A stretch of 64,000 nucleotides of DNA from a virus. The stretch is from positions 8,865 to 72,864 of the IMG/VR virus record IMGVR_UViG_3300025620_000004. One strand, written 5' to 3'. The notes beneath the pieces were generated by a model that was given only the letters and a program-made list of their open reading frames with translations, had not been told where the DNA came from and ran no database searches. How positions within the stretch are numbered: the first letter of the stretch is position 1; each line of letters begins with the position of its first letter. Below, piece after piece: positions 22,301 through 36,470 of this stretch. The translations under genes and the position numbers were made by a program.

Positions 22301-23871
22301 TGACTACAGACGCTCCTCCTCCTTTTGGTGTAGAAAAGAACGGTAATGTAACTATGCGGTCTTATCAGCTTACTGATACTGCAGGCGCTATTGTATTTGA
22401 CTCAGAAAACTTATTAGGTGGACCCGTACTAGCTCAGATTCAGAACTTGGTAGGGAATTTTACAGATAGTGTTACTACCTCTATTCACGCTTCCGGTCAT
22501 ATCAAAGTAGAACTAGGGGCTGCTCAAAACGTACAAATTGGTTATGAAGTACCTCTAGGAAATCCCTATGTGAGTGACGTATCTACAAGTGTAGCTGACG
22601 TTATGAATGCGTTACCTTCAGCCATTAAAGTAAATGTTGAGTACTCTACTAATAATGGAGCATCTTGGAGTTTATTTGGTGCTCAAACTTTTAGTAGACT
22701 ATCTAGTACAGACGCCAATGCTACTACAAGCGCCTCTCAGTATCTTGTTCATGGAGATTCTTATGATGCTCGCTCGGGCGGTACCAGATACGTAGCACAT
22801 ATTGTTAGTAATAAAGGAGCAGTATCTGCAACAGGCGGCTTAAAAGGCACTATAACAGGTTCAGGAAATTTATCAGCAGGTACTTACTTATTTAGAATAG
22901 ATGATACTTCAGGTACTTCCGGTAATTCAGGAATTGTATGGACTGCCGGGTCTTATACTGGCTATGGCTATACCTTCCATAAGTATGGTAGCGGCTCCTC
23001 GAACGACCCTGCTCAGGCTTTTGCAAAAAATGCAGATAGAGTGTACATTGTAGGTTCTAGTTCTTCGACAGGAGGTACAGCAGGTGCTGGTTATACTATT
23101 AATACAAATACTAGTCCACCTCACGTTAAAGATTCTACTTTTAATATAGAGTATATGCCTATTACAGGAGGTACTTTTACAGGTGCGCTTAACTGGGGAA
23201 CAGACACTGCCAGCATAAACTATGGTAACTACGGTACGGGTACTGATGTTTTTAGCGTGAATCTAGGTAGCAACTCTAACGGGATAGTATTTGGACTGAA
23301 TGGTAATGCCTTGCAATTGCAGGACAATCTTAGTGCACATCATTCATTTGATAATAATGGAGACATTAGGTTCACAGGAGACTTAAAACAGCTCGACGAT
23401 GGAGATACTAAGATATCTTTCACCAACGACAAAATAAGTTTTCTAGCCGGTAATGCTACAATGATGGAGTTAGTTGAAGTAAGCACAGGATATGATTACG
23501 TTAGACTAGGAAATACTGGTGATGGCAATGATACCATTACGTTTAATCTATCAGCAGGCTCAGGTGTCTTTACAGGAAATGTAACAGCTTACTCAGATAT
23601 AAGTCTTAAAGAAAATATAGAAGTTATTGATAATGCCGTAGATAAAGTCAGTAAACTAAGAGGTGTTACTTTTGACCGAATCGATAAAGAAGCCATTCCC
23701 AGACAAACGGGACTTATCGCTCAAGAACTAGAAAAAGTGTTGCCTGAAGCTGTGGAAACTAATGAGCTATCAGGTATAAAGTCGGTAGCTTATGGCAATG
23801 TCGTAGGTCTTTTAGTAGAAGCAATTAAAGAACTCAAAGAAGAAATCGAAGAGTTAAAAAGGAGTAAATAA
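16351..23871 (+). CDS. Central tail tip/fibre (lambda gpJ-like) with C-terminal S74 intramolecular chaperone
   Basis: DVISEGPI.G, NNPAWIYYD.LTN.RYGLG, FGCTSEGQA.R.GKW; C-term YSDISLKENI...LRGVTF...GLIAQEL..V.PEAV...V.Y..VVGLLVEAIKEL. Confidence 0.92.
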   Translation: MRHGGNGGGGAGTGNSGNSNPGGTGTSSNNAATISTSASDAQLVSITDVISEGPILGLVDGSASVFLNNDRIHEVSAAGQRVSHGPMTITLTNGSTSATINNATSTTPLTANASLGAQLLIRGGNLTETSVTSSYDTRHKVSLSTSSSTFTQTMVTAVGQRARPDSLVPGRIKPTGSSTTPDGLPIEGFIWRRVSGTEALWRSGAFGDYNDFRLDDATYKLELDKIVNINAGGINGSSITLASAWDGISGTYSWDKISVVNMDISEVGSRASQRVQGGTVNFRPGTLNQTPMRSGGETAISRTIGEQMEVGTARFLVGSGNCGLTEAQLLEVDKLRWRITYPAGFKAISGKGNDKTTYIRYRISIAIKEEGDSDFGGFTIIRNPLTHSGNYTNSKTFESDLNLERFRPFTDFKLKLERLDTDDDPGFKSVGQTYKDWTNVTAGSLTGVTSILNEKLNHPYTAMADVSFSTKQYQGIPQRTYDLYGKMVRVPSNYVTREEATNGVASYNRNTSTGVITSNYQDWDGDFRDELVYSNNPAWIYYDILTNNRYGLGSFIKEVDIDKYALYRVARYCDGLVPDGKGGLEPRFTLNTYLTKGANSYKVLKDLATNFLGLLYYLDGQLYTSLDAPAAPVYTFNKTNVIDGTFSYESSSEKTRSNQIIVNWNDPTKDYKMEPLIVEDERNIVNTGRIISETAVAFGCTSEGQATRYGKWKLWTAANQKEIATFSASLEGAFVAPGDIINIQDADRYAVRLGGRVSNTGTLSTTTIPLDSTVLLNSGSTYTLSLVYPKPAAFTREAVTISGVSYEAGDLIHQAYVDGSLTVIDTKEKSVNAKVSASSGAEPLTLDFNANLRTETKDITSSQIGSSVTSITVTSAFTEAPTRESLWVLQETKTGLQVKGSKKEYKVLSISENSGNVYDITCIEHYDSKWTSVEEDFTTYIQGDLEPSLLSTDVVPPVENLIARSHGRDNGTAHETLLVSWDPPGAGQAYVRNSTGGRHNQTVSQEYEYLLGYIVEHNLPEYENPMRVGRDTTELLFSDLVPDDYTITVRTVNAIDNVSEAISVQTTITDRFQDAIPRFPLGLPYGGTSNVAIKTINSTSGDSDYGLFELAKSVYIFSPEQTNGFGINQTSTAASTYQQDVSGIAETAAVASSESGTFIDRHYYVSLNSAVATDNLTLLKYNKTPNHRVPYWYDAGNGSNTTGLTNLTGTISVSGSTVTGSGTSFTSELVVGALLQTTSTAAAIVTSVVSDTAVYIDRILPDGSGITAQTNNHRFDFDNETIIAKVYATDNGAANKVFSMEPYMSLDANVQAQQGVTRTLYYRATNNGAAGTINTTTGTFDDPATGAATGWQLANPGLQANGDIIYAITRIFTNDGLAPQEASWSTASIVARRQDGAAGNAAKVVSLRASKSVIEYAADGTTGSGQTITLTAESKNFDDGYFRFTADDGSFTTIDWVDGTTANTKTATYSIPTSYNADPITFTVQVKEGSSGSEEARDVLTIPSIKPGVDAIDALTVVMTNEAHAIPRASATATPDFTGSGNTIRVFEGTTELDHDNTGTAASHYKVVTTGSTNCTPGNLTGEGSNVLSATFDQITGITGNTALVKYTITGKRADGTAFSLVRFQSLTRTTDGAPGNPAVDEKTVIVYKKFAAGVSAPTAITFTSGNNATDQTHSNPTNELDGWTIAYPSISVEGDRVYSGQRTFTLTGGDSSWTFNGLVAEIKTGPRTATIQLHYSAAVTDGSTPAKPTTSNTHTFNFAASTFGTIKTGWQHGAPTYASGNSNKYYYSFATITESSFGGSQTITFGNTTQAIGFSGLVTFTSAGVLEDDQYSITPLTTHQDVSSFMEAADVADHIGGANTSTIDGGKINAGSSVTVGTSGTNRAGLSGVGTAETDIRVFSGAAFANRATAPFRVTQAGEFRSSTGIIGGFTFGDDAMTTSQDTILRLGSDLGNNIDQSVTLSSRSEDDYVIYAGHAPTDDDPVTTDAPPPFGVEKNGNVTMRSYQLTDTAGAIVFDSENLLGGPVLAQIQNLVGNFTDSVTTSIHASGHIKVELGAAQNVQIGYEVPLGNPYVSDVSTSVADVMNALPSAIKVNVEYSTNNGASWSLFGAQTFSRLSSTDANATTSASQYLVHGDSYDARSGGTRYVAHIVSNKGAVSATGGLKGTITGSGNLSAGTYLFRIDDTSGTSGNSGIVWTAGSYTGYGYTFHKYGSGSSNDPAQAFAKNADRVYIVGSSSSTGGTAGAGYTINTNTSPPHVKDSTFNIEYMPITGGTFTGALNWGTDTASINYGNYGTGTDVFSVNLGSNSNGIVFGLNGNALQLQDNLSAHHSFDNNGDIRFTGDLKQLDDGDTKISFTNDKISFLAGNATMMELVEVSTGYDYVRLGNTGDGNDTITFNLSAGSGVFTGNVTAYSDISLKENIEVIDNAVDKVSKLRGVTFDRIDKEAIPRQTGLIAQELEKVLPEAVETNELSGIKSVAYGNVVGLLVEAIKELKEEIEELKRSK

Positions 23872-24485
23872 TGGCACTACCAGCGGCAGGGAATAGTCTA
23901 TCTTTAAATCAAATTCATATAGAGGCAGGAGGTACTTCTGGTACCACTTGCTCTTTAAATGATAGCGACATTAGAGGGCTAACACCCGGGTCAGGTTATA
24001 CTATCCCTACAGGAGATCAAACTGCTATTGATATTGGTGATTTTTTCGAGGCATCTTCAACTAATCCTAATATACATACTTTAACAGCAGGTTTCCAACA
24101 AACTACATTTAGCTCCAGGTCGGGAGGCTCTTCTACATATACAAACTACTACGGATATATGCCTTTTTATGGCAGCCCGACTTCGCAGAACGGTACTTTA
24201 AGTCCTACTACTTTTGCTCTGAAAAGCGGAGCGACTATTTTAGGAATCTACAAAAACACTAGCACCGCCAGCACGAGCCTTAATAATAAGTTATTTTTAA
24301 GAGTAAATGGTGCACAAGCAAATAGTGGATGGACTTCTATGAATATTGTTCAGGGTTCTTTAAATCTGACTTTTTATAGGACTTCTGCCACCCATGTGTC
24401 TGGTGCTAGTTACTCATATTGGCAGTGGTCTACTACCGCCTCCCTATTCCCCAACGGAACAAGTTCGACAATTACTTTTGCATAG
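23871..24485 (+). CDS. Putative fibre-tip adhesin/receptor-binding protein
   Basis: MALP..G..LSL..I..E.G...SLND..IR.L...I.I.DF N-terminus typical of proteins following S74-chaperone fibres; aromatic-rich beta C-terminus. Confidence 0.6.
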   Translation: MALPAAGNSLSLNQIHIEAGGTSGTTCSLNDSDIRGLTPGSGYTIPTGDQTAIDIGDFFEASSTNPNIHTLTAGFQQTTFSSRSGGSSTYTNYYGYMPFYGSPTSQNGTLSPTTFALKSGATILGIYKNTSTASTSLNNKLFLRVNGAQANSGWTSMNIVQGSLNLTFYRTSATHVSGASYSYWQWSTTASLFPNGTSSTITFA

Positions 24486-24494
24486 GAAAATATA

Positions 24495-24734
24495 ATGATT
24501 GAATATACAACAAGAACAGAAGATTCTGTAGTCTTTGCTTGCTTCACACATGAAGGGTTAAACTTAGAAGTACCTATAACCGATATAGAAGAGGAGCAGG
24601 TACAAGCTTTTTTAGCTTTTACATTAGATGATATAAAGAATACTCTAGCACAAGACGAGTTTTTAGAAGATGAAGAAAATCAAGAAAAAGGATTTTGGTG
24701 GAATGACTACGAAAATAGAGTAGACTGGGAATAA
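24495..24734 (+). CDS. Hypothetical acidic protein (possible fibre chaperone)
   Basis: 79 aa, RBS AGGA, directly after adhesin. Confidence 0.5.
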   Translation: MIEYTTRTEDSVVFACFTHEGLNLEVPITDIEEEQVQAFLAFTLDDIKNTLAQDEFLEDEENQEKGFWWNDYENRVDWE

Positions 24735-24752
24735 CCATGAAAAAAATAATTC

Positions 24753-24781
24753 TTGACATAACACCCCAAGTTAGCTATAAT
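24753..24781 (+). promoter_or_regulatory. Sigma70-type promoter of the fibre/glycosyltransferase operon
   Basis: aaaaataattcTTGACA-17bp-TATAAT. Confidence 0.85.
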
Positions 24782-24801
24782 TCTGTAATGGAGGAAATCA
24801 A

Positions 24802-25140
24802 ATGAGTGCAGCCCGCTACAACCTAGTTATTGACCAAGGTTCCGACTTTGCCATTAACTTTACTGTTAAAGACAACGGATCAGTTAAAAACCTGACAGGC
24901 TATTCTGCGCGTGCTCAAATGAGAACTTCAAAGACAGCTTCCTCAGTTGCGGCTACTTTTAATTGCGCTATTAATACTCCAGCAAACGGAACAATTACAA
25001 TGTCTTTAGCAAATTCAGTGAGCAGCCCGTTAACCGCAGGTACTTACGTTTATGATTTAGAAATCTTCACCGCTAACAATGCCAGTGTAACTAGATTAAT
25101 TCAAGGGTCTGTAGACCTCACTCAAGAGGTTACCCGATAA
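24802..25140 (+). CDS. Virion collar/baseplate adaptor (BppU/p132-like)
   Basis: YNL.IDQG.DF...NLTGYSARAQMR...G.YVYDLE.....TRLIQG motif. Confidence 0.7.
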   Translation: MSAARYNLVIDQGSDFAINFTVKDNGSVKNLTGYSARAQMRTSKTASSVAATFNCAINTPANGTITMSLANSVSSPLTAGTYVYDLEIFTANNASVTRLIQGSVDLTQEVTR

Positions 25141-25505
25141 TGGCAATTACAATTACCGCAACGCCTATACAGAACGGCATCGAAGTTACGGGTGGAAGTA
25201 CAACTATTACCGCAGCAGGAGTAGCTATTGCAAATACTAATGCAACAGCAATGGGTATTTCCAGTGTATCAGGTTTAAGTGCTACAAACGTGCAGACTGC
25301 TATTGAAGAACTTGCAGGTTCTACGTTCCAACAAGACAACACACCAACGGGGTCTCAAGTCAATGAAGGGGACACATGGTACGATACAGATGATAATCAA
25401 TATAAAATATATCGCGAGACAAGCACCGGAGTATATCAGTGGGTACCTATAATGGTAGGTTCAGCCTCTGGAGATTCTGATACACTTGACGCAGGAGCCT
25501 TTTAA
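25140..25505 (+). CDS. Small fibre adaptor protein
   Basis: ATNVQ.AIEEL trimer motif, P....EGDTWYDT, C-terminal LDAGAF. Confidence 0.6.
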   Translation: MAITITATPIQNGIEVTGGSTTITAAGVAIANTNATAMGISSVSGLSATNVQTAIEELAGSTFQQDNTPTGSQVNEGDTWYDTDDNQYKIYRETSTGVYQWVPIMVGSASGDSDTLDAGAF

Positions 25506-25526
25506 GGCTAATCCCGGAGATCCTAA

Positions 25527-26555
25527 ATGGCTCAAACAATTCAAATCAAGCGTAGTACTAGTACTACAACCCCCTCAAGCCTTACTGCAGGTGAATTAGC
25601 ATATTCAGGTAAGTCAGACAGTAATAAACTATTTATCGGACACCCCGACGGCACTACAGGTGTTGTTGCTATTGGTGGTCAATATTACACAGGCATTATT
25701 GATGGTGCCGCAAGTGCGAACACTGCAAGTAAATTAGTACTGCGAGACGGTTCAGGAAACTTCAGTGCTGGTACAATTACAGCTACTTTAACAGGTGATG
25801 TTACTGGTAACGCAGATACTGCCACAGCTCTTGCTTCAGGCAGAACGATTGCAATCACAGGGGACTTAGCGTATACTTCTCCTAGCTTTACAGGTGCTGG
25901 CAATGTTACCGCAGCAGGTACTCTTGCAACAGTAAACTCAGACGTAGGATCTTATGGTACTGCAACGGCAATTCCTGCAATCACTGTAAATGCAAAAGGT
26001 CTTGTTACAGCGGTTAGTACTAATAGTATTTCTTCTAGTTTTACTCTAGCGGCAGACAGCGGCACCAACGATACTTTCAATAATGGTGAAACTTTAACAC
26101 TTACAGGCGGAACAGGTGTTGCCACAACTGTTAGTAACAATGCGGTTTCTTTTGCAATCGGACAGGCAGTTGCTACCACCTCTAATGTAACATTCAATAA
26201 TGTTCAGGTAGACGGTACTCTAACTTCTGATGACATTACTTCTACAAATATCTCGGTTGCTGGTAATGCTACAATTACGGGTAATCTTACAGTTGAAGGT
26301 ACTACAACTACTGTTGATTCTACTACTGTTGCCATTGGTGATAACATCATGGTTCTTAACAAAGACGAAACAGGTACTCCTTCTGCAAATGCTGGTATCG
26401 AAGTTGAACGAGGAACTGCGACAAATGTATCGCTTCTTTGGAACGAAGGCAACGATAACTGGACTGTGAGCAATGGAAGTGCAACTTCCGTAATATTAAC
26501 TGCCGCAAACTTTGGAAGCACTTATACAGGTGCAATTGACGGCGGTACATTCTAA
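25527..26555 (+). CDS. Tail/side fibre protein
   Basis: MAQTIQIKRS...P..L..GELAY N-terminus (Mtd_N-like), G/T/N-rich shaft repeats, C-terminal IDGGTF. Confidence 0.75.
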   Translation: MAQTIQIKRSTSTTTPSSLTAGELAYSGKSDSNKLFIGHPDGTTGVVAIGGQYYTGIIDGAASANTASKLVLRDGSGNFSAGTITATLTGDVTGNADTATALASGRTIAITGDLAYTSPSFTGAGNVTAAGTLATVNSDVGSYGTATAIPAITVNAKGLVTAVSTNSISSSFTLAADSGTNDTFNNGETLTLTGGTGVATTVSNNAVSFAIGQAVATTSNVTFNNVQVDGTLTSDDITSTNISVAGNATITGNLTVEGTTTTVDSTTVAIGDNIMVLNKDETGTPSANAGIEVERGTATNVSLLWNEGNDNWTVSNGSATSVILTAANFGSTYTGAIDGGTF

Positions 26556-26603
26556 AATAAATTTTAATCTCTAGCGTATATACGCAAGTTATAGGAGAGC
26601 CAC

Positions 26604-26834
26604 ATGGCACAAACGATCAAATTAAAGCGCTCGTCTACGGCGGGCTCTATTCCTACTCATTCACAACTAGAGTTAGGCGAAGTTGCTATCAATACTGCGG
26701 ACGGTCGTATGTATATGAAAGACGGAGCTAACGCCATTGTCTGGGTAAATAAAACTTCTGAAATTACAGGAACCACTCCGCAAGCATCGGACGGAACAAA
26801 TAAGCCCGTAGGGTATGTTTGGTATGTAGTCTAA
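26604..26834 (+). CDS. Short fibre adaptor paralogous to N-terminus of 25527 protein
   Basis: MAQTIKLKRS...P....LELGEVAINT.DG; C-terminal GYVWYVV. Confidence 0.65.
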   Translation: MAQTIKLKRSSTAGSIPTHSQLELGEVAINTADGRMYMKDGANAIVWVNKTSEITGTTPQASDGTNKPVGYVWYVV

Positions 26835-26835
26835 G

Positions 26836-29800
26836 ATGACTATTAAGGTTTGGAATGGTTCCGCAGTACAAGAACCAGAGCAAATAGTAGTTAAAGCTGC
26901 AGCGGGAACGTTGCGGTTTGTAAACTATGTCGTACAGAAAGTTACAGATGGAAGTCTGAATACTGTATGGAATGCTATTTACAATACAAGCCGATCTACC
27001 GATACCTCTAGAAGCTCTACAACTACTTTTACGACTACCTTTGACACTAGTGCAAGTACCAATATTAATACTACTACGGGATTTGATACAATCAGAGGTA
27101 CTACCAGAAGCACAAGTAGCACGTTTACTACTGCGTATGATACTTCTGCTGTTACTTCCAAGTCTACTACTACCGCTTACAGTACCACATTCGGTACAAC
27201 TGCAAGTACAACCACTACTTATGTGAGTAACTTCGATACAACTCGTGGTACTACAGTAAATACCACTACCTCTTTCAATACTACTTTTGCTACATCGAAA
27301 GATACTACTACTGCGTTTACCACTACTTTTGACACTGCTACTAGTGTGGCTACTACTACTGCGTTTACAACAACGTTTGAGACTACTCGCGCCACTGCGG
27401 TAGATACCACCACTACATTTACTACGACTTTCGCAACTAGTAAAACAACTAATACAGTATTTACTACTACGTTTAATACTACTACTACTCGTACTACCAC
27501 TACTGCGTATACGACTACTTTCAACACGAGTAAAACTACTCTACGAAATACCACGACCACGTACACTACTAGCTTTAATACTACAAAAAGCACTGTTACT
27601 ACGTTCAATACTGAATTTGCTACAGGTACGAGCAGAGCTACCACAACCACGTATACTACTACGTTTAACACTACTAGATCTACCACGATAGATACTACTA
27701 CTGCTTATACTACGACTTTTAATACTACTCGATCTACAACGATAGATACGACTACTACGTTTAATACTACGACTACTCGTAGTACTACGACTACGTATAC
27801 AACTAATTTTAATACTTCAAGAGGTACTTCTAAGTCTACTACTGTAAACACTACTACGACTTTTGATACTTCTCGAAGCACTTCTAAATCTACAACTACT
27901 GTATTCAATACTCAGACTTCAAGAGGTACAGATAGAGCAACCACTACGACCTTTAATACTTCTCGAAGCACAAGCAGGGGCACCAGTAAGTCTACCACTA
28001 CTACATTCCTAACAGGAACCTCACGTAGTACAACAACAGCTTTTGTTACTCAAACAAGTAAGTCAACCTCCAGAGCAACAACGTCTGTATACGATACTAG
28101 TAGAGGTACTTCCCGAGTTACTAGTAAAGCCACTACTACTGCTTTTGCTACGGGTACAAGCCGAAGCACTACTACAGCATATGCTACGTCGAGAGGCACA
28201 AGTCGTGCTACCAGTAGAGGTACTACTACAGTATTCGGAACAACTACAAGCCGAGGAACAACGACAGCCTTTAACACGACGACTACTTTTACTACAACTC
28301 GTGCCTCCAACACTGTATATGCCACAAGCAGAACTACCGGTACTTCGAGAAGCACAACAACAGCTTTTGCTACCGCTACAAGTCGAAGCACTGGAGAAAG
28401 TAGAAGCACAACTACTACGTTTAATACAAGTAGAGGTACAACTTTTGGTACCACTACTGTATTTGTTACAGCTACTTCAAGAGGTACTGGCGAAAGTAGG
28501 GGTACTACTACGAGTCGAGGAACGGCTACGAGTCGTACAACATCTTTCAATACCACTACTTCTTTTGGTACTACGACTGCGTATACTACTACAAGTTCAT
28601 TTACTACAACTTTTGCTACCACGACTGCATACACAACTACAACTGCATTTACCACAACTTTTAGTACCACGACTGCGTATACAACTACAACCTCGTTTAC
28701 GACTGCATTCGGCACTACTACAGCGTACACAACTACTACTTCGTATACAACTACTACTACATTTGGTACTACTACTGCATATACTACATACTATACAGCT
28801 AGTACGAGCAGAGGTACTACTACGTCTCGTGGTACGTCTCGTGGTACGTCTCGTGGTACAAGCCGAAGCACTACTACTGCCTTTGTGGGGCAGACTGCCT
28901 ATGCTAGTTTAGTAGTACGAACTACTACGTTTACTACGTATTATAATACCGCGTATACTACATACTACTATTCTCGTAGCCATACAAGCAGGGGTACTTT
29001 AAGAGCAACCAGTAGAAGCACAAGTAGAACTACCACATTCTATCAAGATGTAAGACATGATACGGCAAAAAGTCGAGGAACAACCACTGCTTTCACTACT
29101 AGTTATACTACCTACTGGAGTACAACTTTTGGTACTACCACTACTTTCGGTACTGCGAAAAGTCGCGCAACAAGCCGTAGTACTGCTACAAGTAGAGGTA
29201 CAGGAGAATCTCGAGGAACAGGGGAGTCCAGGAGCACTACTACTTCTCGCGGTACAAATAGAGCAACAGCAGAATCTAGAGGCACTGCTACAAGCAGAGG
29301 CACTTCTAGAGCAACAGCAGAATCCAGAAGTACTGCTACAAGCAGAGGCACTTCTAGAGGTACAGGAGAGTCCAGAAGCACTACTACAAGCAGGGCAACA
29401 GGAACTAGTCGTACAACTACATTTACTACAACTACTTCTTTCGGTACAACCACAGCGTATACAACAACTACTACGTTTGGCACTGCCACAAGTAGAGGTA
29501 CTACTACGAGTCGTACTACTACGTTCGGAACCAATAGAAGTACAACTACAGCGTATACAACAACTACTACGTTTAATACAATTACCAGTAAAGCTACTAC
29601 TACTGCTTTTGGTACGACTACTACTTTTGACACAAGTAAGAGTACTACCACAACCTATAACACAAATAGGGCAACAGGAACGAGTCGAGGTACTACTACT
29701 GCTTTTGTTACAGCAACGAGTAAAAGTACAACCACAGCGTATACTACATCTTTTACTACTACTTTCGGTACTAGTAAAAGCACTACTACTTCGTTTAATA

Positions 29801-31062
29801 CTACAACTACTCGTAGTACAACGACTACGTATACCACTGCGTTTTCTACAACTTTTAATACGTCGTTAAGTACAACTACTACATTTACTACTACATTTGG
29901 CACTACGACTACTAGGGCTACAACGACTGCGTTTAATACTAATACTACGCTTGCTACTACAACTGCTTATACTACTACGTTTACTACTACTTTTGCAACA
30001 AGTAAAAGTACTACTACCGCGTTTACTACTACTTTTGCGACAGCTACAAGTAAAAGTACAACTACTACTTTCAATACTACGTTCGCTACAAGCAAAAGTA
30101 CTGGCTGTGTGTATACTACTGCATATACTACTACATTTGGTACCAGTAATATAACATCAAAGGCAACTACGACAGCATTCCTAACCGCTACTAGTAAAAC
30201 AACTACTAGTACGTATACTACTACTTTTGCCACAAGTAAAGGTACTTCGAAAACGACCACTAGTACATATACTACTATATTTAATACTAGTAATGTAACC
30301 GATAAATCAACTACTACGGCGTTTAATACTACTACATCTCGTTCTACTACGAAAGACACTACTACTACGTTTATAACTAGTAGAACTACTACGAATGAAA
30401 CTGGTTGCACCTATACTACTACTTTCGCAACGAGCCGAGGTACAACTAAAGACACAACTACTGCATTCTCTACTGCCACATCCAGAACTACTAATTTTGA
30501 TACTACAACTGTATTTGATAGTTCCAGAAGTACAACAAAGAGCACTAGTAGCCAGTATACCACTGTCTTTAATACTAACCGAGGCACTAGCAAGTCCACT
30601 ACCTCTGTATTTAATACTGCAACCAGTAGAGGCACTGATCATCAGACAAGCACCGTATATGATACAACAGGAGGAACTTCTAGAGTTACTTCGAGTGCAT
30701 TTGTTACTGTATTTAATACGACTGTAACTACGGATAAAAGTACCACTACAGCATTCGATACCTCCAGAGCCACTACTAAAAGCACTACCAGTAATTATAC
30801 TACTACGTTTGCTACTTCTAAGAGCACGCAAGTTACTACAACTACTGCATTCTCTACAGTTTATAATACTACTCGTAGTACTACTACTACGCGTACAACT
30901 ACTTTTGAAACGAGCAAATCGACTTCAAGAGCTACCACTACTACGTTCGGAACAAACACAGTTGTTTATGAGCGTATCACAAGTACAGGAGTTGAGACCG
31001 AGGTTTCATCTTCTTCTGCACACAACTCACGATATTGGGATGGATCACAATGGACGGAATAA
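26836..31062 (+). CDS. Thr-rich self-complementary fibre protein (predicted giant antiparallel beta-hairpin)
   Basis: 1408 aa; 50-aa N-cap (KVWNGS) and ~30-aa C-cap (YWDGSQW) flank T-x-(T-x)-Z-x units whose order and lengths mirror about residue ~715. Confidence 0.85.
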   Translation: MTIKVWNGSAVQEPEQIVVKAAAGTLRFVNYVVQKVTDGSLNTVWNAIYNTSRSTDTSRSSTTTFTTTFDTSASTNINTTTGFDTIRGTTRSTSSTFTTAYDTSAVTSKSTTTAYSTTFGTTASTTTTYVSNFDTTRGTTVNTTTSFNTTFATSKDTTTAFTTTFDTATSVATTTAFTTTFETTRATAVDTTTTFTTTFATSKTTNTVFTTTFNTTTTRTTTTAYTTTFNTSKTTLRNTTTTYTTSFNTTKSTVTTFNTEFATGTSRATTTTYTTTFNTTRSTTIDTTTAYTTTFNTTRSTTIDTTTTFNTTTTRSTTTTYTTNFNTSRGTSKSTTVNTTTTFDTSRSTSKSTTTVFNTQTSRGTDRATTTTFNTSRSTSRGTSKSTTTTFLTGTSRSTTTAFVTQTSKSTSRATTSVYDTSRGTSRVTSKATTTAFATGTSRSTTTAYATSRGTSRATSRGTTTVFGTTTSRGTTTAFNTTTTFTTTRASNTVYATSRTTGTSRSTTTAFATATSRSTGESRSTTTTFNTSRGTTFGTTTVFVTATSRGTGESRGTTTSRGTATSRTTSFNTTTSFGTTTAYTTTSSFTTTFATTTAYTTTTAFTTTFSTTTAYTTTTSFTTAFGTTTAYTTTTSYTTTTTFGTTTAYTTYYTASTSRGTTTSRGTSRGTSRGTSRSTTTAFVGQTAYASLVVRTTTFTTYYNTAYTTYYYSRSHTSRGTLRATSRSTSRTTTFYQDVRHDTAKSRGTTTAFTTSYTTYWSTTFGTTTTFGTAKSRATSRSTATSRGTGESRGTGESRSTTTSRGTNRATAESRGTATSRGTSRATAESRSTATSRGTSRGTGESRSTTTSRATGTSRTTTFTTTTSFGTTTAYTTTTTFGTATSRGTTTSRTTTFGTNRSTTTAYTTTTTFNTITSKATTTAFGTTTTFDTSKSTTTTYNTNRATGTSRGTTTAFVTATSKSTTTAYTTSFTTTFGTSKSTTTSFNTTTTRSTTTTYTTAFSTTFNTSLSTTTTFTTTFGTTTTRATTTAFNTNTTLATTTAYTTTFTTTFATSKSTTTAFTTTFATATSKSTTTTFNTTFATSKSTGCVYTTAYTTTFGTSNITSKATTTAFLTATSKTTTSTYTTTFATSKGTSKTTTSTYTTIFNTSNVTDKSTTTAFNTTTSRSTTKDTTTTFITSRTTTNETGCTYTTTFATSRGTTKDTTTAFSTATSRTTNFDTTTVFDSSRSTTKSTSSQYTTVFNTNRGTSKSTTSVFNTATSRGTDHQTSTVYDTTGGTSRVTSSAFVTVFNTTVTTDKSTTTAFDTSRATTKSTTSNYTTTFATSKSTQVTTTTAFSTVYNTTRSTTTTRTTTFETSKSTSRATTTTFGTNTVVYERITSTGVETEVSSSSAHNSRYWDGSQWTE
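26986..30969 (+). repeat. Degenerate 12/18-nt codon-level repeat array (ACN-rich)
   Basis: About 265 units of 4 or 6 codons; includes 48-nt tandem duplications at 28600-28695 and 29260-29355 and a 54-nt one at 27640-27747. Confidence 0.85.
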
Positions 31063-31187
31063 CCCTCAAAGAATTAAACCACAAAATAGAAACAACTTTA
31101 GAAATAGTCATGGAGCACTTCGTAGAAATGGAAGAGCGAATGGAAGATTTAGAGACTCAGCTTGAGGAATTACAGGATGGGGCTTAA
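31050..31187 (+). CDS. Small acidic coiled-coil protein (45 aa, not in ORF track)
   Basis: Hand translation MDGITLKELNHKIETTLEIVMEHFVEMEERMEDLETQLEELQDGA; overlaps both neighbours. Confidence 0.65.
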   Translation: MDGITLKELNHKIETTLEIVMEHFVEMEERMEDLETQLEELQDGA

Positions 31188-32049
31188 AAGACTAGCAGAT
31201 AAAGATGAGCTAGGAAATAAGGCAGCACACTTCTTTAAGTCTGGTAATATAATGCGTACAGACGAAAACGATGAAGTTACAAAACTGAAAGAGCTGCTTC
31301 CTGCCCGAGGAAACTGGGGAACACCTTTAGAATACGATGTCTGGTACGATATTGCGGAAGAAGAAATTGCTGGGTATACGTACACCGATTGTTTTTCTAA
31401 ATGTATAATGATACGTGTCGCGTCTTACGAGAAAGCAAATCGTACAATGAGACTAGCAGCCAAAGAGCCTATAAGCGAAGAAGGTTTAGCTATTTTTAAC
31501 GAACTCCGTGATAATAGTCACGATAAGTATAAACTTAGCAAAAGAAAACAAAAGCAGCATAAGTTTGTAATCTTTCTCCCAGGTACTAATATCATAGACA
31601 AAGTTTTAAATTACGATAAAGCTAAAAGGGCAGTGGCACAAGGTGCTGTACTAAAATGCCATCCTTTAACAGCTCCCGGAATGGTAGCATATCTCAAATC
31701 AGAGTTTGGTAGAGAGAATGTTATAGACAAGAAACTGTCTGGCCATAAACTTCTGGATGAGGCTGATATTGTAGGTTGTTGTAGCAACTCTGAAATGGGC
31801 TTGCTTGCAATTGCGAAAGGGAAAACAGTATACACTTTTGACTCAAAACCTGATTTACAGACTACTTACGGAGCAATCTACAGAGCAATCTGGGGTAAGG
31901 ATGATATGCCTAGCGTGAATAGATTTAAGAGATTACTTTCCTCAAAGTATTCCGGTATCATTCCTTACTTTATAGACAACCCGCAAGAAAGAATAAACTA
32001 TTATTTTAATTTTTGGAAAGCAAACCCCCATGCAATACCTCGTAATTGA
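31177..32049 (+). CDS. KpsS/KpsC (Capsule_synth)-like glycosyltransferase
   Basis: K.HP motif (LKCHP) and ADIV...NSEMGLLAIAKGKTV resembling the NS..G.EA...GK.V motif; start ATG 31177 with GAGGA RBS. Confidence 0.6.
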   Translation: MGLKRLADKDELGNKAAHFFKSGNIMRTDENDEVTKLKELLPARGNWGTPLEYDVWYDIAEEEIAGYTYTDCFSKCIMIRVASYEKANRTMRLAAKEPISEEGLAIFNELRDNSHDKYKLSKRKQKQHKFVIFLPGTNIIDKVLNYDKAKRAVAQGAVLKCHPLTAPGMVAYLKSEFGRENVIDKKLSGHKLLDEADIVGCCSNSEMGLLAIAKGKTVYTFDSKPDLQTTYGAIYRAIWGKDDMPSVNRFKRLLSSKYSGIIPYFIDNPQERINYYFNFWKANPHAIPRN

Positions 32050-32737
32050 AAATGAGTTTACAGCCCTTACTGTAAACTCTATAAAACAAAACATGCCTGA
32101 TGCAAAATACGTGACTGCCCCTATGGGAGAGGGCAGGATTCAGACAGCTTTAAAACTGTGCACAGAGCCTACTATGGTAGTTACAGGCGGTATTATACTC
32201 AATATAAAAGAAGGAGATTTACCAGACCCTAAAGTGCTGGAAACTAAACACTTGGCAATGAGTAGAGAAGCAGTTTTTGCAGATCACCCTAGATGGAACC
32301 GGAACTATGAACTCATAAAAAGTCGTTTGCATGACGGAGTTGTGGATATGTCTATTTTTATTATTAACCCTGTAAAATGGAAAAAGATACCTAAAAAAGA
32401 TATTAATTTTTTACTTGGAAAAAAGATATTGTATATGCCAAGATATATGAATCATAGAGATGATCCAACACTAGGAACTTGTATGGGTGGAAAAGATATA
32501 CTGGCATATGCGTCTTTGGGAGAGGACGCCTCTGTGCATAACTATCTTACTCACCTATACTCAGGAAAAGCTAGTGTAAGAGAGACGTTTGGATGTTGTT
32601 TTGATAAGCTACTACCCTATACGGAAGGTTTAGACGAAAGAGAAAAAGAGATAGTAGAAAAACTAGGTAATCTTACAAAGGTAAGGGTAGGAAAGTTAAG
32701 GCAGATGATGATAGACAGAAAAAAAGCCCCTGATTAA
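32030..32737 (+). CDS. Degenerate GT-A/GT8-like protein
   Basis: LTVNSI..N.P, DMSIFIINP..W, MPRYMN resemble GT8; canonical DxD absent. Confidence 0.45.
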   Translation: MQYLVIENEFTALTVNSIKQNMPDAKYVTAPMGEGRIQTALKLCTEPTMVVTGGIILNIKEGDLPDPKVLETKHLAMSREAVFADHPRWNRNYELIKSRLHDGVVDMSIFIINPVKWKKIPKKDINFLLGKKILYMPRYMNHRDDPTLGTCMGGKDILAYASLGEDASVHNYLTHLYSGKASVRETFGCCFDKLLPYTEGLDEREKEIVEKLGNLTKVRVGKLRQMMIDRKKAPD

Positions 32738-32750
32738 AGGGGCTTTCTTC
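32717..32750. terminator. Bidirectional terminator at convergence of structural and replication arms
   Basis: gaaaaAAAGCCCC-tgattaaa-GGGGCTTTcttc. Confidence 0.8.
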
Positions 32751-32751
32751 G

Positions 32752-33228
32752 TTATGGATGTACTGGAAAAGTAATCTGTGCTTGTAGCATTTCTGCTATG
32801 CTTTCCACCTGCTCTTCCGTTGCCCAGACAATACCTAAATTGAACTGAATAACTCCAGGTTTGATACCTGCTTTAGTACACATATTCTCAAAAGCTAAGG
32901 CATACTTGCACACTGCCTCTGGAAACTCGTCAACTAGATTAATTTCTTCTATATTGACTCTTATGTCCATTAGACCTTCTCTTTTGAAAGTCTGTATTTC
33001 TGGACAATCTTCGTTAATATACAGTGCATCTTTCTTTGCATCTGCTCTATTAAACTCAGAGTTACCAAAGTTAGGGAAAGATAGTGAAATGTCTGGAAAC
33101 CAGATATTACTACCAAAACTCTCTACTCTATCATTTTGCTCCACGTTATTTCTGGCAAGATCATCAAGCATACCTAAGTAGCTTAACTCACTACCAAAAC
33201 GAGGGTCTTGTTCTTGTTGTTCACTCAT
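32752..33228 (-). CDS. Hypothetical protein
   Basis: 158-aa ORF downstream of nrdJ with AGGA RBS. Confidence 0.6.
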   Translation of the reverse strand: MSEQQEQDPRFGSELSYLGMLDDLARNNVEQNDRVESFGSNIWFPDISLSFPNFGNSEFNRADAKKDALYINEDCPEIQTFKREGLMDIRVNIEEINLVDEFPEAVCKYALAFENMCTKAGIKPGVIQFNLGIVWATEEQVESIAEMLQAQITFPVHP

Positions 33229-33239
33229 TTTTATATTCC

Positions 33240-35120
33240 TTATACGATCTCACAAGCACCGCCAACACAGGCGAGTTCTTGAGATCCAGTTGTGTTATCT
33301 TCTTTCTCAAACTGAGCTAAATCTTCCCAGTTTACATTTTGTGGCATAGCCGCCACAAGCTTTTGGTACTCTTCTTCATTTATATCTTCGTATGGAGCTT
33401 GCTGATAAGTGTGATCACTTGTCGGAAGCAAACTAATACCAGAACATAGATCAAAATTATCCCAAATCCACTGTGATACTTGCAAGTATTCACTATCAGT
33501 ATAGTATACAGTCACACTCGGTTTGTGCTCACACCAGTGATTCTGATAAGCTTTCCATAACCTTAGCTGATGCATTGCACCTACGTCTCGTACACAAGTA
33601 CTTGCTTCTGGAGACTTAACAGGAAAGCTAAAGACTACAGAAGTAGGAGACATTACATCTTGTTCCATGGGAAACCCTGCTTGTTCCATATAGAGAGCAA
33701 GTGGGTCTTTTTTGTCTGAACGTACTCTCCGAATGTAATGCTTAGAGAAGCGAGGATGTATACCGGAAGCACTATCAACAAGCTGAGACACAGTACCAGA
33801 TGGCTTAACACACGTAATAGCGACAGACTGATTAACACCAAGCCTTTCAGCCCATTCTTTATTTGTTTCAATACTAACATCTCTCATCTCCTCTAGCCAT
33901 TCTGGCAGTATGTCTGAGTCAGGGTTTCCTAGGACTGCATGATCCATGATACCTGTTAGACTTACTCCCAACAATGCTTCTTCTTCAGTGTTACGCTTCC
34001 AACGCACTCGCAGATATCTAAAGTCTGTTAAAGTAGACTGTAGTGTACCAATGATTGTTGCTTTGCGTACTTTTTCTTTTAATGTTTCTAACGTGTCGTC
34101 TGCTCGTACAACTACTTCTGACAAGTTACAAAACTCGTTGCTTCGTAGAATAATCTCGGAACAAGGGTTAGTACCAAAATCATGCTCAGGGTCACGACGA
34201 CCATTACGACCTGCAATTTTCTGTGCCGCTACGCGACTGAACAACCCACGCTCACCAGATTTAGACTCATATAGATTCTTCATCTCGGTCAAGAACGCTT
34301 CGAAGTCAGGCTTTTCTGTATATGCTACAGAATTGTTTGCAAGCCTACGCTGGCCTTGGTCAATCCACCACTGACCTGATTTAGCTTTTGACATACGCTG
34401 ATCTGAAAGATTAGAAAGACTAATCAAAGCTGACCTACGAACGCCACCAACTACTACAATATCAGCAATCTTACAGCAGACATCATGACACTCAATACTT
34501 GTAAGTTTACGTCCCTTTGCTTTCTGGAATATTTCTACACAGAAACGGAACAAGTCTTGCAAAGGCTCTGGGCCACTTGCTCTACCACCAAAAGTTTTAA
34601 GTCTAGCACCTGCTGGACGTACTCGGCTCATATCCCACTGAGGTAATTTACCTGCATAAAGCATGGCAATCAACTCACGAAAGGCACTCGCCCATCCTAG
34701 CTTACTATCGCTTACTACGATTGTAGAACTTGTTTTGTGGAATGTTTCTGCTACTTCTGGTAGCTTATTGATGAAGTTACGTTCTACACTAAAGCCTACG
34801 CCTGTGCCACACATCAATACATACATCAGCTCGTCAAAAGCTCGTGGATGGTCGATATGCAAATAGCTACAGTTAAAGCCTGCTACGTTATCACGTTTCA
34901 ACGCTTCACCTGCTGTCATCATACAACGCATAGAAGGCATAACTTCTAAAGCATTAATGGCATTCCAGATTTCTTGACCACTTTCGTCGTCTAACTGTTC
35001 TCTTTCTTTAAAGAAATCAACATAGCGACTACAGGTTTCATCCCATGTTTCTCTGCGGCCTTCGTCCTCTAGCCATCGTGCGTATCTGCTTTTATGAATA
35101 AAACTTTGATACTGATCCAT
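33240..35120 (-). CDS. nrdJ: Class II (adenosylcobalamin-dependent) ribonucleotide reductase
   Basis: FNCSY, GTNPCSEI, CNLSEV, TCVKPSGT, C-terminal CVGGACEI; no NrdB partner. Confidence 0.92.
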   Translation of the reverse strand: MDQYQSFIHKSRYARWLEDEGRRETWDETCSRYVDFFKEREQLDDESGQEIWNAINALEVMPSMRCMMTAGEALKRDNVAGFNCSYLHIDHPRAFDELMYVLMCGTGVGFSVERNFINKLPEVAETFHKTSSTIVVSDSKLGWASAFRELIAMLYAGKLPQWDMSRVRPAGARLKTFGGRASGPEPLQDLFRFCVEIFQKAKGRKLTSIECHDVCCKIADIVVVGGVRRSALISLSNLSDQRMSKAKSGQWWIDQGQRRLANNSVAYTEKPDFEAFLTEMKNLYESKSGERGLFSRVAAQKIAGRNGRRDPEHDFGTNPCSEIILRSNEFCNLSEVVVRADDTLETLKEKVRKATIIGTLQSTLTDFRYLRVRWKRNTEEEALLGVSLTGIMDHAVLGNPDSDILPEWLEEMRDVSIETNKEWAERLGVNQSVAITCVKPSGTVSQLVDSASGIHPRFSKHYIRRVRSDKKDPLALYMEQAGFPMEQDVMSPTSVVFSFPVKSPEASTCVRDVGAMHQLRLWKAYQNHWCEHKPSVTVYYTDSEYLQVSQWIWDNFDLCSGISLLPTSDHTYQQAPYEDINEEEYQKLVAAMPQNVNWEDLAQFEKEDNTTGSQELACVGGACEIV

Positions 35121-35941
35121 TATACCATTCTCTCCTCAATATTGGACACATTGTCCTTGCCTATTGCGTCATCGCAATATGTTACTAAATCCATCAACTC
35201 ATAGTTCTTTAGCAGTACTTCTGCGTTTTCATTCAATTCTTGTATGTACTTGTATTTGCCCTCGATGGGTATACAATCATAAATTGACATGGCATCGCCA
35301 TACTGTTCTATAAGTTGTTGTGCTCTTTTCGGCCCTATGCCGTTGATTCCTGGGACATTATCACCTTTATCTCCTGTTAAACACTTGAAAGAGATATACT
35401 CTTCTGGTTTAACTTCGTAGTGCTCATGCCAGTTATCTATTGTTACCTCTTTTCGAGTAACGTAAGAAAATCTACTTACACCGTCCTGAATCAATAAGTC
35501 CCAGTCTCGGTCACTAGATACCAGCCAGATATTTTCTAATCCGTACTGTTTTCTTTGCTTTACAAGGTGGGCAGCAAGATCATCTGCCTCTACACCTTTG
35601 TAGCGAAGAACGTCATAGCTTTCTGACAGTAATTCTAGTGTTTCTTCGTACTCTTCAAAGAAGTCAATAAATGCTTGCTTCTCTGCTTCAGTTTGTTCAG
35701 CATACTTATCTTTTCGATTCTGCTTGTACTCTGGTAATATCTCTTTTCTATAACTAGATGATCCCCAATCTGCGGTAATAATAACCTTACCACAATTGTA
35801 AGATGTTGCTAGAGATCTTACTGTTTCTACATACTGATGTCTAAAATCTGTTCTGCCTTGATGCTTCCACCGAAAAGCTAAGTTTAGTGCATCTACTATG
35901 AGTACACCATCTTGGTTGCGTTCGTTAAAATTAAAAGCCAC
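35120..35941 (-). CDS. D15: Flap endonuclease / 5'-3' exonuclease (T5 D15-like)
   Basis: IVDALNLAFR, YKQNR, GVEADD, SSDRDW, GDKGDNVPGINGIGPK. Confidence 0.92.
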   Translation of the reverse strand: MAFNFNERNQDGVLIVDALNLAFRWKHQGRTDFRHQYVETVRSLATSYNCGKVIITADWGSSSYRKEILPEYKQNRKDKYAEQTEAEKQAFIDFFEEYEETLELLSESYDVLRYKGVEADDLAAHLVKQRKQYGLENIWLVSSDRDWDLLIQDGVSRFSYVTRKEVTIDNWHEHYEVKPEEYISFKCLTGDKGDNVPGINGIGPKRAQQLIEQYGDAMSIYDCIPIEGKYKYIQELNENAEVLLKNYELMDLVTYCDDAIGKDNVSNIEERMV

Positions 35942-36377
35942 CTATCCACTCCGTCTTTTCTGTTTTTAACCAATCATCTGCTAGTAGTACATAACAATTC
36001 AAAAAACGAATATACAGATACTCATCTGTGCCTTCTGGTTTGTTTTCTGTTACTACAAATACTTTAGATCGGTCATATTTAAAGAATAACAAGGGCTTTT
36101 GATCGCCACCTGCTGCTTGTATTACAATCTTCTTCCACCATCTGATAATGTTATTTGTTTTCGGTTGTGTGAATATCTTATCAGTCAGCGGTGAGTCTTT
36201 ATAATTTTTTACCTCTATACAATAATGATTTCTCTGATTAGGGACATATAAGTCCCCTTTCAGATATTCAAGAGCACCCGAGGCAGGCACTCTCTCAAAT
36301 TTCAGTCCGGTCGCTTCCCTCAGCATGTCCCTCACCAGGTACTCGCCTCTCGCTCCCTTCGCTCTCGAATCTACCAT
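35931..36377 (-). CDS. D14: Holliday-junction-resolvase-like endonuclease (T5 D14-like)
   Basis: SRAKGARGE...RVPASGA...KGD...IEVK PD-(D/E)xK motif. Confidence 0.85.
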   Translation of the reverse strand: MVDSRAKGARGEYLVRDMLREATGLKFERVPASGALEYLKGDLYVPNQRNHYCIEVKNYKDSPLTDKIFTQPKTNNIIRWWKKIVIQAAGGDQKPLLFFKYDRSKVFVVTENKPEGTDEYLYIRFLNCYVLLADDWLKTEKTEWIGGF

Positions 36378-36470
36378 CTTCGTCCTCTTCGTTCTTCTTG
36401 GGATCTGATCTTACTTGTTCCCAGTGATTTTGTTGTGCCCACCACATTCTTCGTCTACCTGCGCTCATCC

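Follow-up and report, generated by a model that had tools for sequence, protein, structure and literature searches.

Do two tandem duplications that lie at mirror positions in a threonine-rich phage gene record matched changes of length in a protein that appears to fold back on itself, much as the two sides of an RNA stem gain and lose length together? The question arose from a gene at 26836-31062 (+; stop at 31060-31062) in the window, which here means the whole 64,000-nucleotide stretch analysed (positions 8,865 to 72,864 of IMG/VR virus record IMGVR_UViG_3300025620_000004, an uncultured marine siphovirus contig). The gene encodes a protein of 1408 aa, of which 600 residues (43%) are Thr. 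The initial annotation had proposed, from the sequence alone, that a 48-nt and a 54-nt tandem duplication on one arm of a hairpin each face a repeat on the other, that each length change needed two separate equal-sized events, and that this compensatory indel evolution supports pairing and suggests selection on fibre length, and that more homogeneous repeats near the center hint at growth from the tip.

To determine if the duplications are real, the repeat units were compared directly. On the right arm, 29260-29307 and 29308-29355 differ at 3 of 48 positions, while on the left arm 28600-28647 and 28648-28695 differ at 8 of 48, and 27640-27693 and 27694-27747 differ at 10 of 54. The 18-aa repeat facing this last pair, at 30202-30309, exists but is weak, with 17 mismatches of 54 nt and 12 of 18 identical residues, and is not reported by TRF at score 30. 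Among in-frame, in-phase window pairs of the repeat body, 45 or more of 48 identical positions were reached by only 3 of 852,164 pairs, 40 or more of 48 by 68 of 852,164, 44 or more of 54 by 81 of 849,555, and 37 or more of 54 by 1,621 of 849,555, placing the fourth repeat only in the top 0.2%. The 48-nt duplications are therefore far above the ACN-rich background. The arms are not inverted DNA repeats, as the best reverse-complement 48-mer match is 34 of 48.

Adjacent units could also look alike without any recent DNA duplication, if the structure demanded the same 16- or 18-residue pattern. Codon choice argues against this convergent periodicity for the 48-nt pairs, which share synonymous codons beyond expectation (left, 10 of 14 identical-residue codons against 5.9 expected, z 2.3; right, 14 of 15 against 5.1, z 4.9). 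For the 54-nt pair, in contrast, identical codons do not exceed codon usage (9 of 17 against 7.4, z 0.8), and the facing 18-aa repeat gives z 1.8. Convergence is thus considered an unlikely account overall.

The protein obeys one rule: residue i faces residue 1430-i, so that the register sum S equals the protein length L plus 22. Of 693 mirror pairs, 112 are aromatic opposite Arg/Lys, with 1 aromatic:aromatic and 0 basic:basic, and the next best anti-diagonal has 45. Shuffling the 127 units of the right arm gave 27.9±3.4, with a maximum of 38 in 200 shuffles, and the best parallel register gave 81 of 1370. Residues 55-1375 alternate strictly in steps of two without a phase slip, with odd/even counts of 132/6 for aromatic, 114/2 for basic, 16/157 for Ser, 4/91 for Ala, 2/63 for Gly, 3/44 for Asn, and 0/25 for Asp. 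Under this independently found register, left residues 589-620 face 810-841 (809-840 in the initial annotation), and left residues 269-304 face 1126-1161 (1123-1158 in the initial annotation).

In this reading, the base is formed by an N-terminal part (26836-26997, residues 1-54), conserved across relatives and with no mirror partner for residues 1-21, and by a C-terminal part (30961-31059, residues 1376-1408) ending in RYWDGSQWTE and conserved across the family. The left arm of the paired stalk occupies 26998-28875 (residues 55-680) and the right arm 29083-30960 (residues 750-1375). Between them lies a pattern-breaking, Tyr-rich tip (28876-29082, residues 681-749) with the turn around YYYSRSH (residues 710-716) and the axis at Ser715; in 6 close relatives the tip motif starts 5-5.5 residues before S/2. 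One face of the ribbon carries Thr:Thr rungs interrupted every 4 or 6 residues by an aromatic residue opposite Arg/Lys, and the other carries small residues.

The two 48-nt arrays are the two sides of one block of 15 consecutive Phe/Tyr(left):Arg(right) rungs with the same 6-6-4 spacing, a period of 16 residues. The left side spans 28546-28782 (residues 571-649) and holds the array delimited by TRF at 28555-28742 (3.9 copies), while the right side spans 29176-29412 (residues 781-859) and holds the array at 29259-29397 (2.9 copies). The outer ends of the arrays, residues 574 and 856, sum to 1430. The identity matrices of the five left units and the five facing right units correlate at r 0.93, reached by 1 of 120 permutations, and the period-16 tandem profile of the left arm against the mirrored right arm gave a Spearman coefficient of 0.63, reached by 0 of 76 circular shifts. 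Part of both correlations follows from the shared spacing that the pairing rule already imposes, and with the out-of-phase fifth unit left out the matrix test rests mainly on one pair. In addition, given the two arrays, the most similar adjacent pair on each arm would be inferred to face each other by chance about 1 time in 4. Nonetheless, a chance or low-complexity artefact of a gene that is 43% Thr and full of short repeats is contradicted by the background, shuffling and shift controls and by the recurrence of the register in relatives, and is regarded as extremely unlikely.

Matched fresh duplications are shown for this block only. The left 54-nt duplication (27640-27747, residues 269-304; TRF 27652-27774, period 54) faces only the weak repeat described above, and a right-arm 42-nt (14-aa) array at 29970-30102, with a period-14 peak of 0.81 at residues 1045-1073, faces no DNA-level array, there being no left-arm peak of 0.75 or more. 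The two 48-nt duplications also differ in divergence, so simultaneity is not shown.

The same register rule was next sought in the family, for which 78 related viral loci were found. In 38 of 46 distinct ORFs of 351-1781 aa, one dominant anti-diagonal was present with S-L of 15-26 and z of 7.5-15.6, so the arms stay equal over a five-fold length range. Two relatives, L029 and L057, gave S-L of -7 and have a different C-terminus, and a third, L073, showed no clear register (z 3.8). Five relatives (L038, L058, L060, L075, and L078) show distal register shifts of 2-6 residues, indicating that small imbalances are tolerated, but no relative has arms unbalanced beyond this; apparent jumps of 22, 44 and so on in the local register scan are ambiguities inside period-22 arrays. 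A motif-based test that does not use the pairing count gave distances from the left anchor to the tip motif and from the tip motif to the right anchor of 230/232, 262/264, 282/284, 286/289, and 416/418 residues in L001 (the window's own gene) and relatives L008, L013, L009, and L004, respectively. In an independent subfamily, a 22-aa left-arm array spans about 100 to 326 residues (L078 to L068) while S-L stays at 15-16, and the partial right-arm arrays fall inside the mirrored range, except one extra array in L068.

Matched indels could be mapped between L001 and L008 as +76/+76, -54/-52, and +10/+8, with left-arm offsets running 0, 76, 22, 32 and right-arm offsets running 32, 40, -12, 64. The focal block has 15 rungs in L001 and in L002, a relative 97% identical to L001 (139 nt but only 42 aa differences), and 5 rungs in L008, which is shorter there by 54 and 52 residues on the two arms. 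The signal resembling RNA stems lies in indels and block swaps and not in point covariation: in 377 colinear stem column pairs of 7 close relatives no class-level compensatory substitution was found, and the 26 pairs that vary all do so on one side only. In contigs of 4 sequencing runs (X15, X17, X18, and X20) compared with 28300-29700, no inserted or deleted letters were listed, although contigs drop rare variants and X17 covers only 17 of 30 bins, so this is no evidence that intermediates are absent.

While these results support the compensatory-indel interpretation, parts of the initial annotation require qualification. Selection on fibre length is not supported, as length varies from 351 to 1781 aa and what is kept is the balance of the arms. 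The need for two separate events holds for local unit gains, but differences between homologues can also arise by a single recombination event that replaces the whole distal hairpin, both arm ends plus the tip, with that of another phage. Consistent with such cassette exchange, close relatives are colinear without indels in the proximal stalk and differ only distally with near-mirror breakpoints: L001 and L009 over 1-494 and 936-1408 (494+936=1430), L001 and L013 over 3-486 and 941-1408, and L001 and L008 over 1-518 and 942-1408. L001 and L002 differ in patches, mainly around the tip (74 of 139 nt differences lie in residues 641-832), and a contig of run X18 carries a same-length, diverged replacement at 28877-28945. 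However, exchange explains neither how any cassette became balanced in the first place, nor the excess of shared synonymous codons between adjacent units on both arms of the same block, nor the mirrored unit-similarity matrices. It is more a contributor than an alternative, and is unlikely to be the explanation by itself. Growth from the tip is only partly supported: all length variation among the close relatives lies distal of about residue 490 and its mirror, about residue 940, but the expansions sit 60-140 residues from the turn, not at it. Likewise, repeats are only partly more homogeneous near the center, as the strongest pair lies about 100-130 residues from the turn but other tandem pairs lie about 340-550 residues away.

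Taken together, the gene is concluded, with good confidence, to encode a threonine-rich phage fibre protein whose two halves pair residue by residue in antiparallel register, most likely as one very long two-stranded beta-hairpin of about 660 rungs, with the N- and C-termini at the base and a fast-evolving turn region at the far tip. Units were duplicated at the DNA level on both arms, and only lineages in which both arms gained the same number of residues keep the register of everything distal to the change. Because the block is periodic, a unit gained on one arm can be balanced by a unit gained anywhere in the facing array, from which it is inferred that such blocks are the places where length can change. 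The physical hairpin, the order and independence of the two events, and the selective reason are likewise inferences. No structure supports the model: AF2 on L052, a 367-aa relative, with a 12-sequence alignment gave a mean pLDDT of 33.5 and pTM of 0.20. The register also cannot tell pairing within one chain from pairing between chains, either in an extended antiparallel dimer or in an interwoven trimer as in the T4 gp37 needle, where each chain twists around a neighbor before turning back (PMC9603124). A distinct, pattern-breaking, fast-evolving segment exactly at S/2 in all close relatives, and conserved ends that would meet at one end, better fit a turn and a one-ended fibre than a two-fold symmetric rod. 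Although no oligomer prediction gave an answer, inter-chain pairing is considered unlikely.

Sequence searches did not place the protein in any known family. Nothing was found by megablast of window positions 20000-40000 against phages, by tblastn (with the low-complexity filter on) of the whole protein, of its first 55 residues (only chance hits at E 0.8 in Arthrobacter phages) or of relative L064 against phages, by a homolog search with residues 1-56 and 1330-1408 among proteins of 774-2464 aa, or in PHROGs. Pfam gave only a sub-threshold DUF2510 (PF10708) match to residues 1395-1408 (18.9 bits against a cutoff of 24), NCBIfam only a far sub-threshold "serine-rich protein" match (34 bits against 650), and a protein atlas only unnamed viral clusters at 0.80-0.87, below its 0.9 line. 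No PDB chain was matched at E up to 1. Full-text literature searches, which did not extend to supplementary files, found no paper on a Thr-rich mirror-coded or giant beta-hairpin phage fibre. Instead, the relatives define an unnamed family with a single anti-diagonal of aromatic:basic pairs, a conserved N-terminal base, a C-terminal ...TEV...YWDGSQW end, and a downstream Kdo-transferase-like gene.

Among the closest known systems is the needle (domains D10-D11) of the phage T4 long-tail-fibre tip protein gp37, in which each chain runs out to the tip and turns back, so that both termini lie at the same end and the receptor-binding tip is at the turn (PMC9603124). The needle is about 20 nm long, covers about 215 residues, and is an interwoven trimer, whereas here there would be about 660 rungs per arm with a strict alternation and an aromatic:Arg/Lys code. 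No sequence or Pfam relation was found, and the needle core probably holds His-bound iron ions, while this protein has only 4 His. The arms of SMC proteins also fold back at a central hinge, with the N- and C-terminal parts forming a head and constrained arm lengths (PMC5344682), but they are alpha-helical coiled coils with a heptad code and lengths conserved in discrete modes, while here the signature is beta and total length is free. The Trp-Arg ladder of thrombospondin type-1 repeats (PMC6954052) is apparently likewise an elongated antiparallel strand structure stabilized by stacked aromatic and Arg side chains, but in a domain of about 60 residues with three strands and disulfides, without homology or repeat growth. 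Thr-ladder antifreeze proteins have Thr-rich flat beta surfaces (10.1101/2025.03.18.644030), but a solenoid pairs i with i+period in parallel, and the irregular 4/6 spacing found here fits only one antiparallel register.

The fibre gene is followed in 65 of 78 loci by a conserved gene (31177-32049, +) whose 290-aa product has a predicted KpsC/WbbB-like (beta-Kdo transferase) fold. The AF2 model has a pLDDT of 91.5, and the top Foldseek hits are KpsC, KrkA and WbbB (E 7e-7 to 1.2e-3, TM 0.34-0.46). Sequence-family membership was not supported, as the window protein scores 14.7 bits against the Pfam Capsule_synth cutoff of 20, only 4 of 24 members match at E up to 1 (best 7.9e-4), and a profile search against PDB sequences found nothing. 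A second conserved gene (32030-32737, +; 235 aa), with no Pfam or NCBIfam hit, is present in 42 of 78 loci.

A more far-reaching reading, about as likely as not, is of a protein that evolves like an RNA stem. A single chain of 350 to 1800 residues would zip onto itself as one giant two-stranded beta-ribbon, about 0.2 micrometre long in this phage, by a complementarity code of Phe/Tyr opposite Arg/Lys, Thr opposite Thr, and Asn opposite Ser. Its length would be tuned by paired gain and loss of units in periodic, slip-tolerant zones, its tip would be swapped between phages as a host-recognition cassette, and its Thr/Ser surface would be decorated by the Kdo-transferase-like enzyme encoded next to it.

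The family is widespread in marine viral contigs and reaches at least one bacterial genome scaffold and possibly cultured Caulobacter phages, yet it is invisible to Pfam, PHROGs, PDB sequence search, and two structure predictors, making it a concrete test case for what current annotation and folding tools miss. If the pairing is physical, this is a fibre design for which the full-text searches found no description in any virus, a single-chain beta-hairpin hundreds of rungs long held in register by a simple aromatic:cationic code that could be used for designing nanofibres of programmable length. The matched duplications are evidence for the pairing that does not depend on counting residue types, and they point to the periodic blocks as the places where length can be engineered. 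They also show how a long repetitive protein can change length without losing its fold, a protein counterpart of compensatory change in RNA stems.

The duplications lie inside a single gene on the + strand (26836-31062) that encodes 1408 residues, of which 600 are Thr, 184 Ser, 147 aromatic and 123 Arg/Lys. The window is part of a 72.9-kb IMG/VR viral contig, and the gene sits at the end of a siphovirus tail module that also holds a tape-measure protein, a 2506-aa central fibre with Phage-tail_3 and a Peptidase_S74 chaperone domain, and several small fibre or adaptor genes. The reading frame is real, as a 97%-identical copy (L002) differs by 139 nucleotides but only 42 residues, and 78 related viral loci keep the same N- and C-terminal ends. 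All of the mismatch counts in the initial annotation, which had proposed matched tandem duplications at mirror positions in the two arms of a hairpin protein, were confirmed: 3 of 48 for the right-arm pair (29260-29307 versus 29308-29355) and 8 of 48 for the left-arm pair (28600-28647 versus 28648-28695). A second left-arm pair (27640-27747) has 10 of 54 mismatches. The fourth element, a right-arm 18-aa repeat at 30202-30309, has 17 of 54 mismatches. When compared to in-frame, in-phase window pairs of the same repeat body, 45 of 48 identical positions is reached by 3 of 852,164 pairs, 40 of 48 by 68 of 852,164, 44 of 54 by 81 of 849,555, and 37 of 54 by 1,621 of 849,555. Three of the four elements are therefore far above the ACN-rich background, and the fourth only moderately so. 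No inverted DNA repeat is present, the best reverse-complement match being 34 of 48. Tandem Repeats Finder reports a left array at 28555-28742 (period 48, 3.9 copies) and a right array at 29259-29397 (period 48, 2.9 copies).

To determine how the two arms relate to one another, all anti-diagonals i+j=S were scanned for aromatic residues opposite Arg/Lys. One value stands out, S=1430, or L+22 where L is the protein length, with 112 of 693 pairs being aromatic:basic, 1 aromatic:aromatic and 0 basic:basic, while the runner-up has 45. Shuffling the 127 units of the right arm gives 27.9±3.4 pairs, with a maximum of 38 in 200 shuffles, and the best parallel register gives 81 of 1370. When the sequence is folded in this register, the pairing runs without a single gap from about residue 55 to the turn at Ser715. 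The chain also keeps a strict two-residue alternation over residues 55-1375, with aromatic residues found 132 times at odd and 6 times at even positions, basic residues 114 and 2, Ser 16 and 157, Ala 4 and 91, Gly 2 and 63, Asn 3 and 44, and Asp 0 and 25. One face is thus Thr:Thr (171 pairs) interrupted every 4 or 6 residues by Phe:Arg (63), Tyr:Arg (17), Phe:Lys (16) or Tyr:Lys (14), and the other face is made of small residues. Pooled over ten diverse relatives, the small-residue face has its own preferences, with Asn:Ser occurring 254 times against 156 expected, Ser:Ser 54 against 144, and Gly:Thr 172 against 129, much of which comes from aromatic-Asn facing Ser-Arg. Although no structure was obtained, this pattern is consistent with what would be expected of cross-strand neighbors in a two-stranded antiparallel beta-ribbon. 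The i+j rule cannot by itself distinguish an intra-chain hairpin from antiparallel pairing between chains, but the presence of a distinct, fast-evolving segment exactly at S/2, together with the conserved ends, favors a turn.

In this register, left residues 589-620 face 810-841 (809-840 in the initial annotation), and left residues 269-304 face 1126-1161 (1123-1158 in the initial annotation). The outer ends of the two arrays reported by Tandem Repeats Finder, residues 574 and 856, sum to exactly 1430. The two arrays are the two sides of one block of 15 consecutive aromatic(left):Arg(right) rungs, residues 571-649 opposite 781-859, and both sides have the same 6-6-4 spacing, a period of 16 residues.

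Arm lengths covary in relatives. Of 46 distinct ORFs taken from the loci, 38 (351-1781 aa) show one dominant anti-diagonal with S-L between 15 and 26. Of the remaining eight, three are fused forms (L019 4072-10167, L046 5662-12033 and L059 5737-11856) in which the mirror-coded hairpin (S=1062, 1239 and 1221) fills only the first 1000-1200 residues of proteins of 2000 aa or more and is followed by a long further part ending ...YETV(I/Y)INN. Two are pieces of one broken gene, L026 5995-7668 and 7406-10378, split into two overlapping frames by a frameshift or an assembly error, while the close relative L049 (527-4939) has it intact (1469 aa). Two (L029 and L057) have another C-terminus and an S-L of -7, and one (L073) shows no clear signal. 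In a test that does not use the pairing count, the distances from a left anchor motif to the tip motif YYYSR, and from the tip motif to a right anchor motif, are 230/232 residues in the window's own gene (L001) and 262/264, 282/284, 286/289 and 416/418 in relatives L008, L013, L009 and L004, respectively. Balance is not absolute, however, as five relatives show distal register shifts of 2-6 residues.

Matched indels could be mapped directly. Unique 7-mer anchors between L001 and L008 give left-arm offsets of 0, 76, 22 and 32 and right-arm offsets of 32, 40, -12 and 64, corresponding to +76/+76, -54/-52 and +10/+8 residues on the two arms. The order of rung types along the stalk shows what these are: L001 and L002 lack a segment of mixed rungs that L008, L013, L009 and L004 share on both arms, and in exchange their aromatic:Arg block has 15 rungs where L008 has 5. 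The 48-nt arrays are therefore an expansion specific to this lineage, and it is present on both arms. In an independent subfamily, a 22-aa array on the left arm spans about 100 residues in L078, 154 in L064, about 196 in L038 and 326 in L068, while S-L stays at 15-16 throughout. The more degenerate period-22 arrays of the right arm fall inside the mirrored range, except for one extra array in L068.

Length differences between homologues can also come from a single exchange of the distal hairpin. L001 and L009 are colinear over 1-494 and 936-1408, whose ends sum to exactly 1430, and L001 and L013 are colinear over 3-486 and 941-1408. L001 and L002 differ mainly around the tip, with 74 of 139 nt differences and 25 of 42 aa differences in residues 641-832 (28756-29331), while a further, one-armed patch at residues 321-384 (27796-27987) has 29 nt differences and its mirror segment about 2. 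A contig from sequencing run X18 shows a same-length, diverged replacement at 28877-28945. The tip behaves like an exchangeable, fast-evolving module. While such exchange explains how balance is inherited, it does not explain how it arose.

To determine if the repeats arose by DNA duplication on both arms, synonymous codons were compared between adjacent units. Among identical residues, identical codons are 14 of 15 on the right (5.1 expected, z 4.9) and 10 of 14 on the left (5.9 expected, z 2.3). The 5x5 DNA identity matrix of the left units correlates with that of the facing right units at r 0.93, a value reached by 1 of 120 permutations, and the period-16 tandem profile of the left arm correlates with the mirrored right arm at Spearman 0.63, reached by 0 of 76 circular shifts. 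Part of these two correlations must follow from the shared spacing that the pairing rule already imposes, a weakness that the codon test does not have. Only the 48-nt block has equally fresh duplications on both arms, as the left 54-nt pair faces a weak repeat and shows no codon excess (z 0.8), and a right-arm 42-nt array (29970-30102) has no DNA-level partner. In addition, a direct long-range repeat between the two arms (27751-27798 and 29785-29832) has 45 of 48 identical bases and 13 of 15 shared codons. The same 16-aa unit is used on both arms, each time facing a complementary unit, which implies unit copying or gene conversion between the arms. In contrast to the indels, point substitutions gave no compensatory signal: among 7 close relatives, 377 colinear column pairs show no compensatory class change, and the 26 that vary do so on one side only.

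A 290-aa gene (31177-32049) directly follows the fibre gene in 65 of 78 loci, and a 235-aa gene (32030-32737), which remains unassigned, is conserved in 42. Although the first has no sequence family above threshold, its predicted structure (pLDDT 91.5) resembles the retaining beta-Kdo transferases KpsC, KrkA and WbbB, with E from 7e-7 to 1e-3. The presence of a dedicated, putative glycosyltransferase next to a Thr/Ser-rich fibre suggests the hypothesis that the fibre is glycosylated. The protein is strongly basic, with 123 Arg/Lys against 44 Asp/Glu, and it can be speculated that an acidic sugar such as Kdo would offset this. Distant homologues of the Kdo-transferase-like gene occur in cultured phages. 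In the Autographiviridae phage Lullwater of Caulobacter, the homologue (gp42, L080 5968-6843) directly follows a 215-aa Thr/Tyr-rich hypothetical protein (gp41, L080 5321-5965), whose best anti-diagonal, S=L+14, pairs 10 of its 18 basic residues with aromatics (z about 5), making it a possible short cultured relative and a candidate experimental system. In Caulobacter phage Cr30, a 116-aa Thr/Tyr-rich protein (L082 4650-4997) precedes the homologue. A 520-kb genome scaffold of a SAR92-clade bacterium (L083 3761-6889 and 6998-7870) carries a family member (Thr 33%; best anti-diagonal z 10.1, counting Gln with the basic residues) followed by the same two downstream genes. This scaffold could represent a prophage or co-assembled phage DNA, and it hints at marine Gammaproteobacteria as hosts for one subfamily.

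The nearest known architecture is the needle of the T4 long-tail-fibre tip protein gp37, in which each chain runs to the tip and turns back, with both termini in the knob, over about 20 nm (PMC9603124). However, the defining features that could be tested, His motifs and a sequence relation, were not found here. The nearest evolutionary analogue is the fold-back coiled-coil arm of SMC proteins, where arm length is constrained (PMC5344682), although that structure is alpha-helical and conserved in length. The Trp-Arg ladders of thrombospondin repeats and the Thr ladders of antifreeze solenoids appear to share single features with the present protein. No description of a fibre design with such a residue-level pairing code was found in the literature searched.

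Taken together, the mirror-placed duplications are confirmed and their interpretation as compensatory indels is supported, although the order of the two duplication events, like the physical hairpin and its oligomeric state, has not been shown. The initial annotation had also suggested selection on fibre length, but fibre length itself is not conserved, so the selection is on balance. The inferred mechanism is that a unit gained on one arm throws everything distal to it out of register, unless the facing arm gains the same number of residues. Inside a block of period 16, a shift by 16 keeps aromatic opposite Arg, and a compensating gain can therefore fall anywhere in the facing array, while a one-unit bulge may be tolerated for a time. 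This would make periodic blocks the zones where length changes, as observed.
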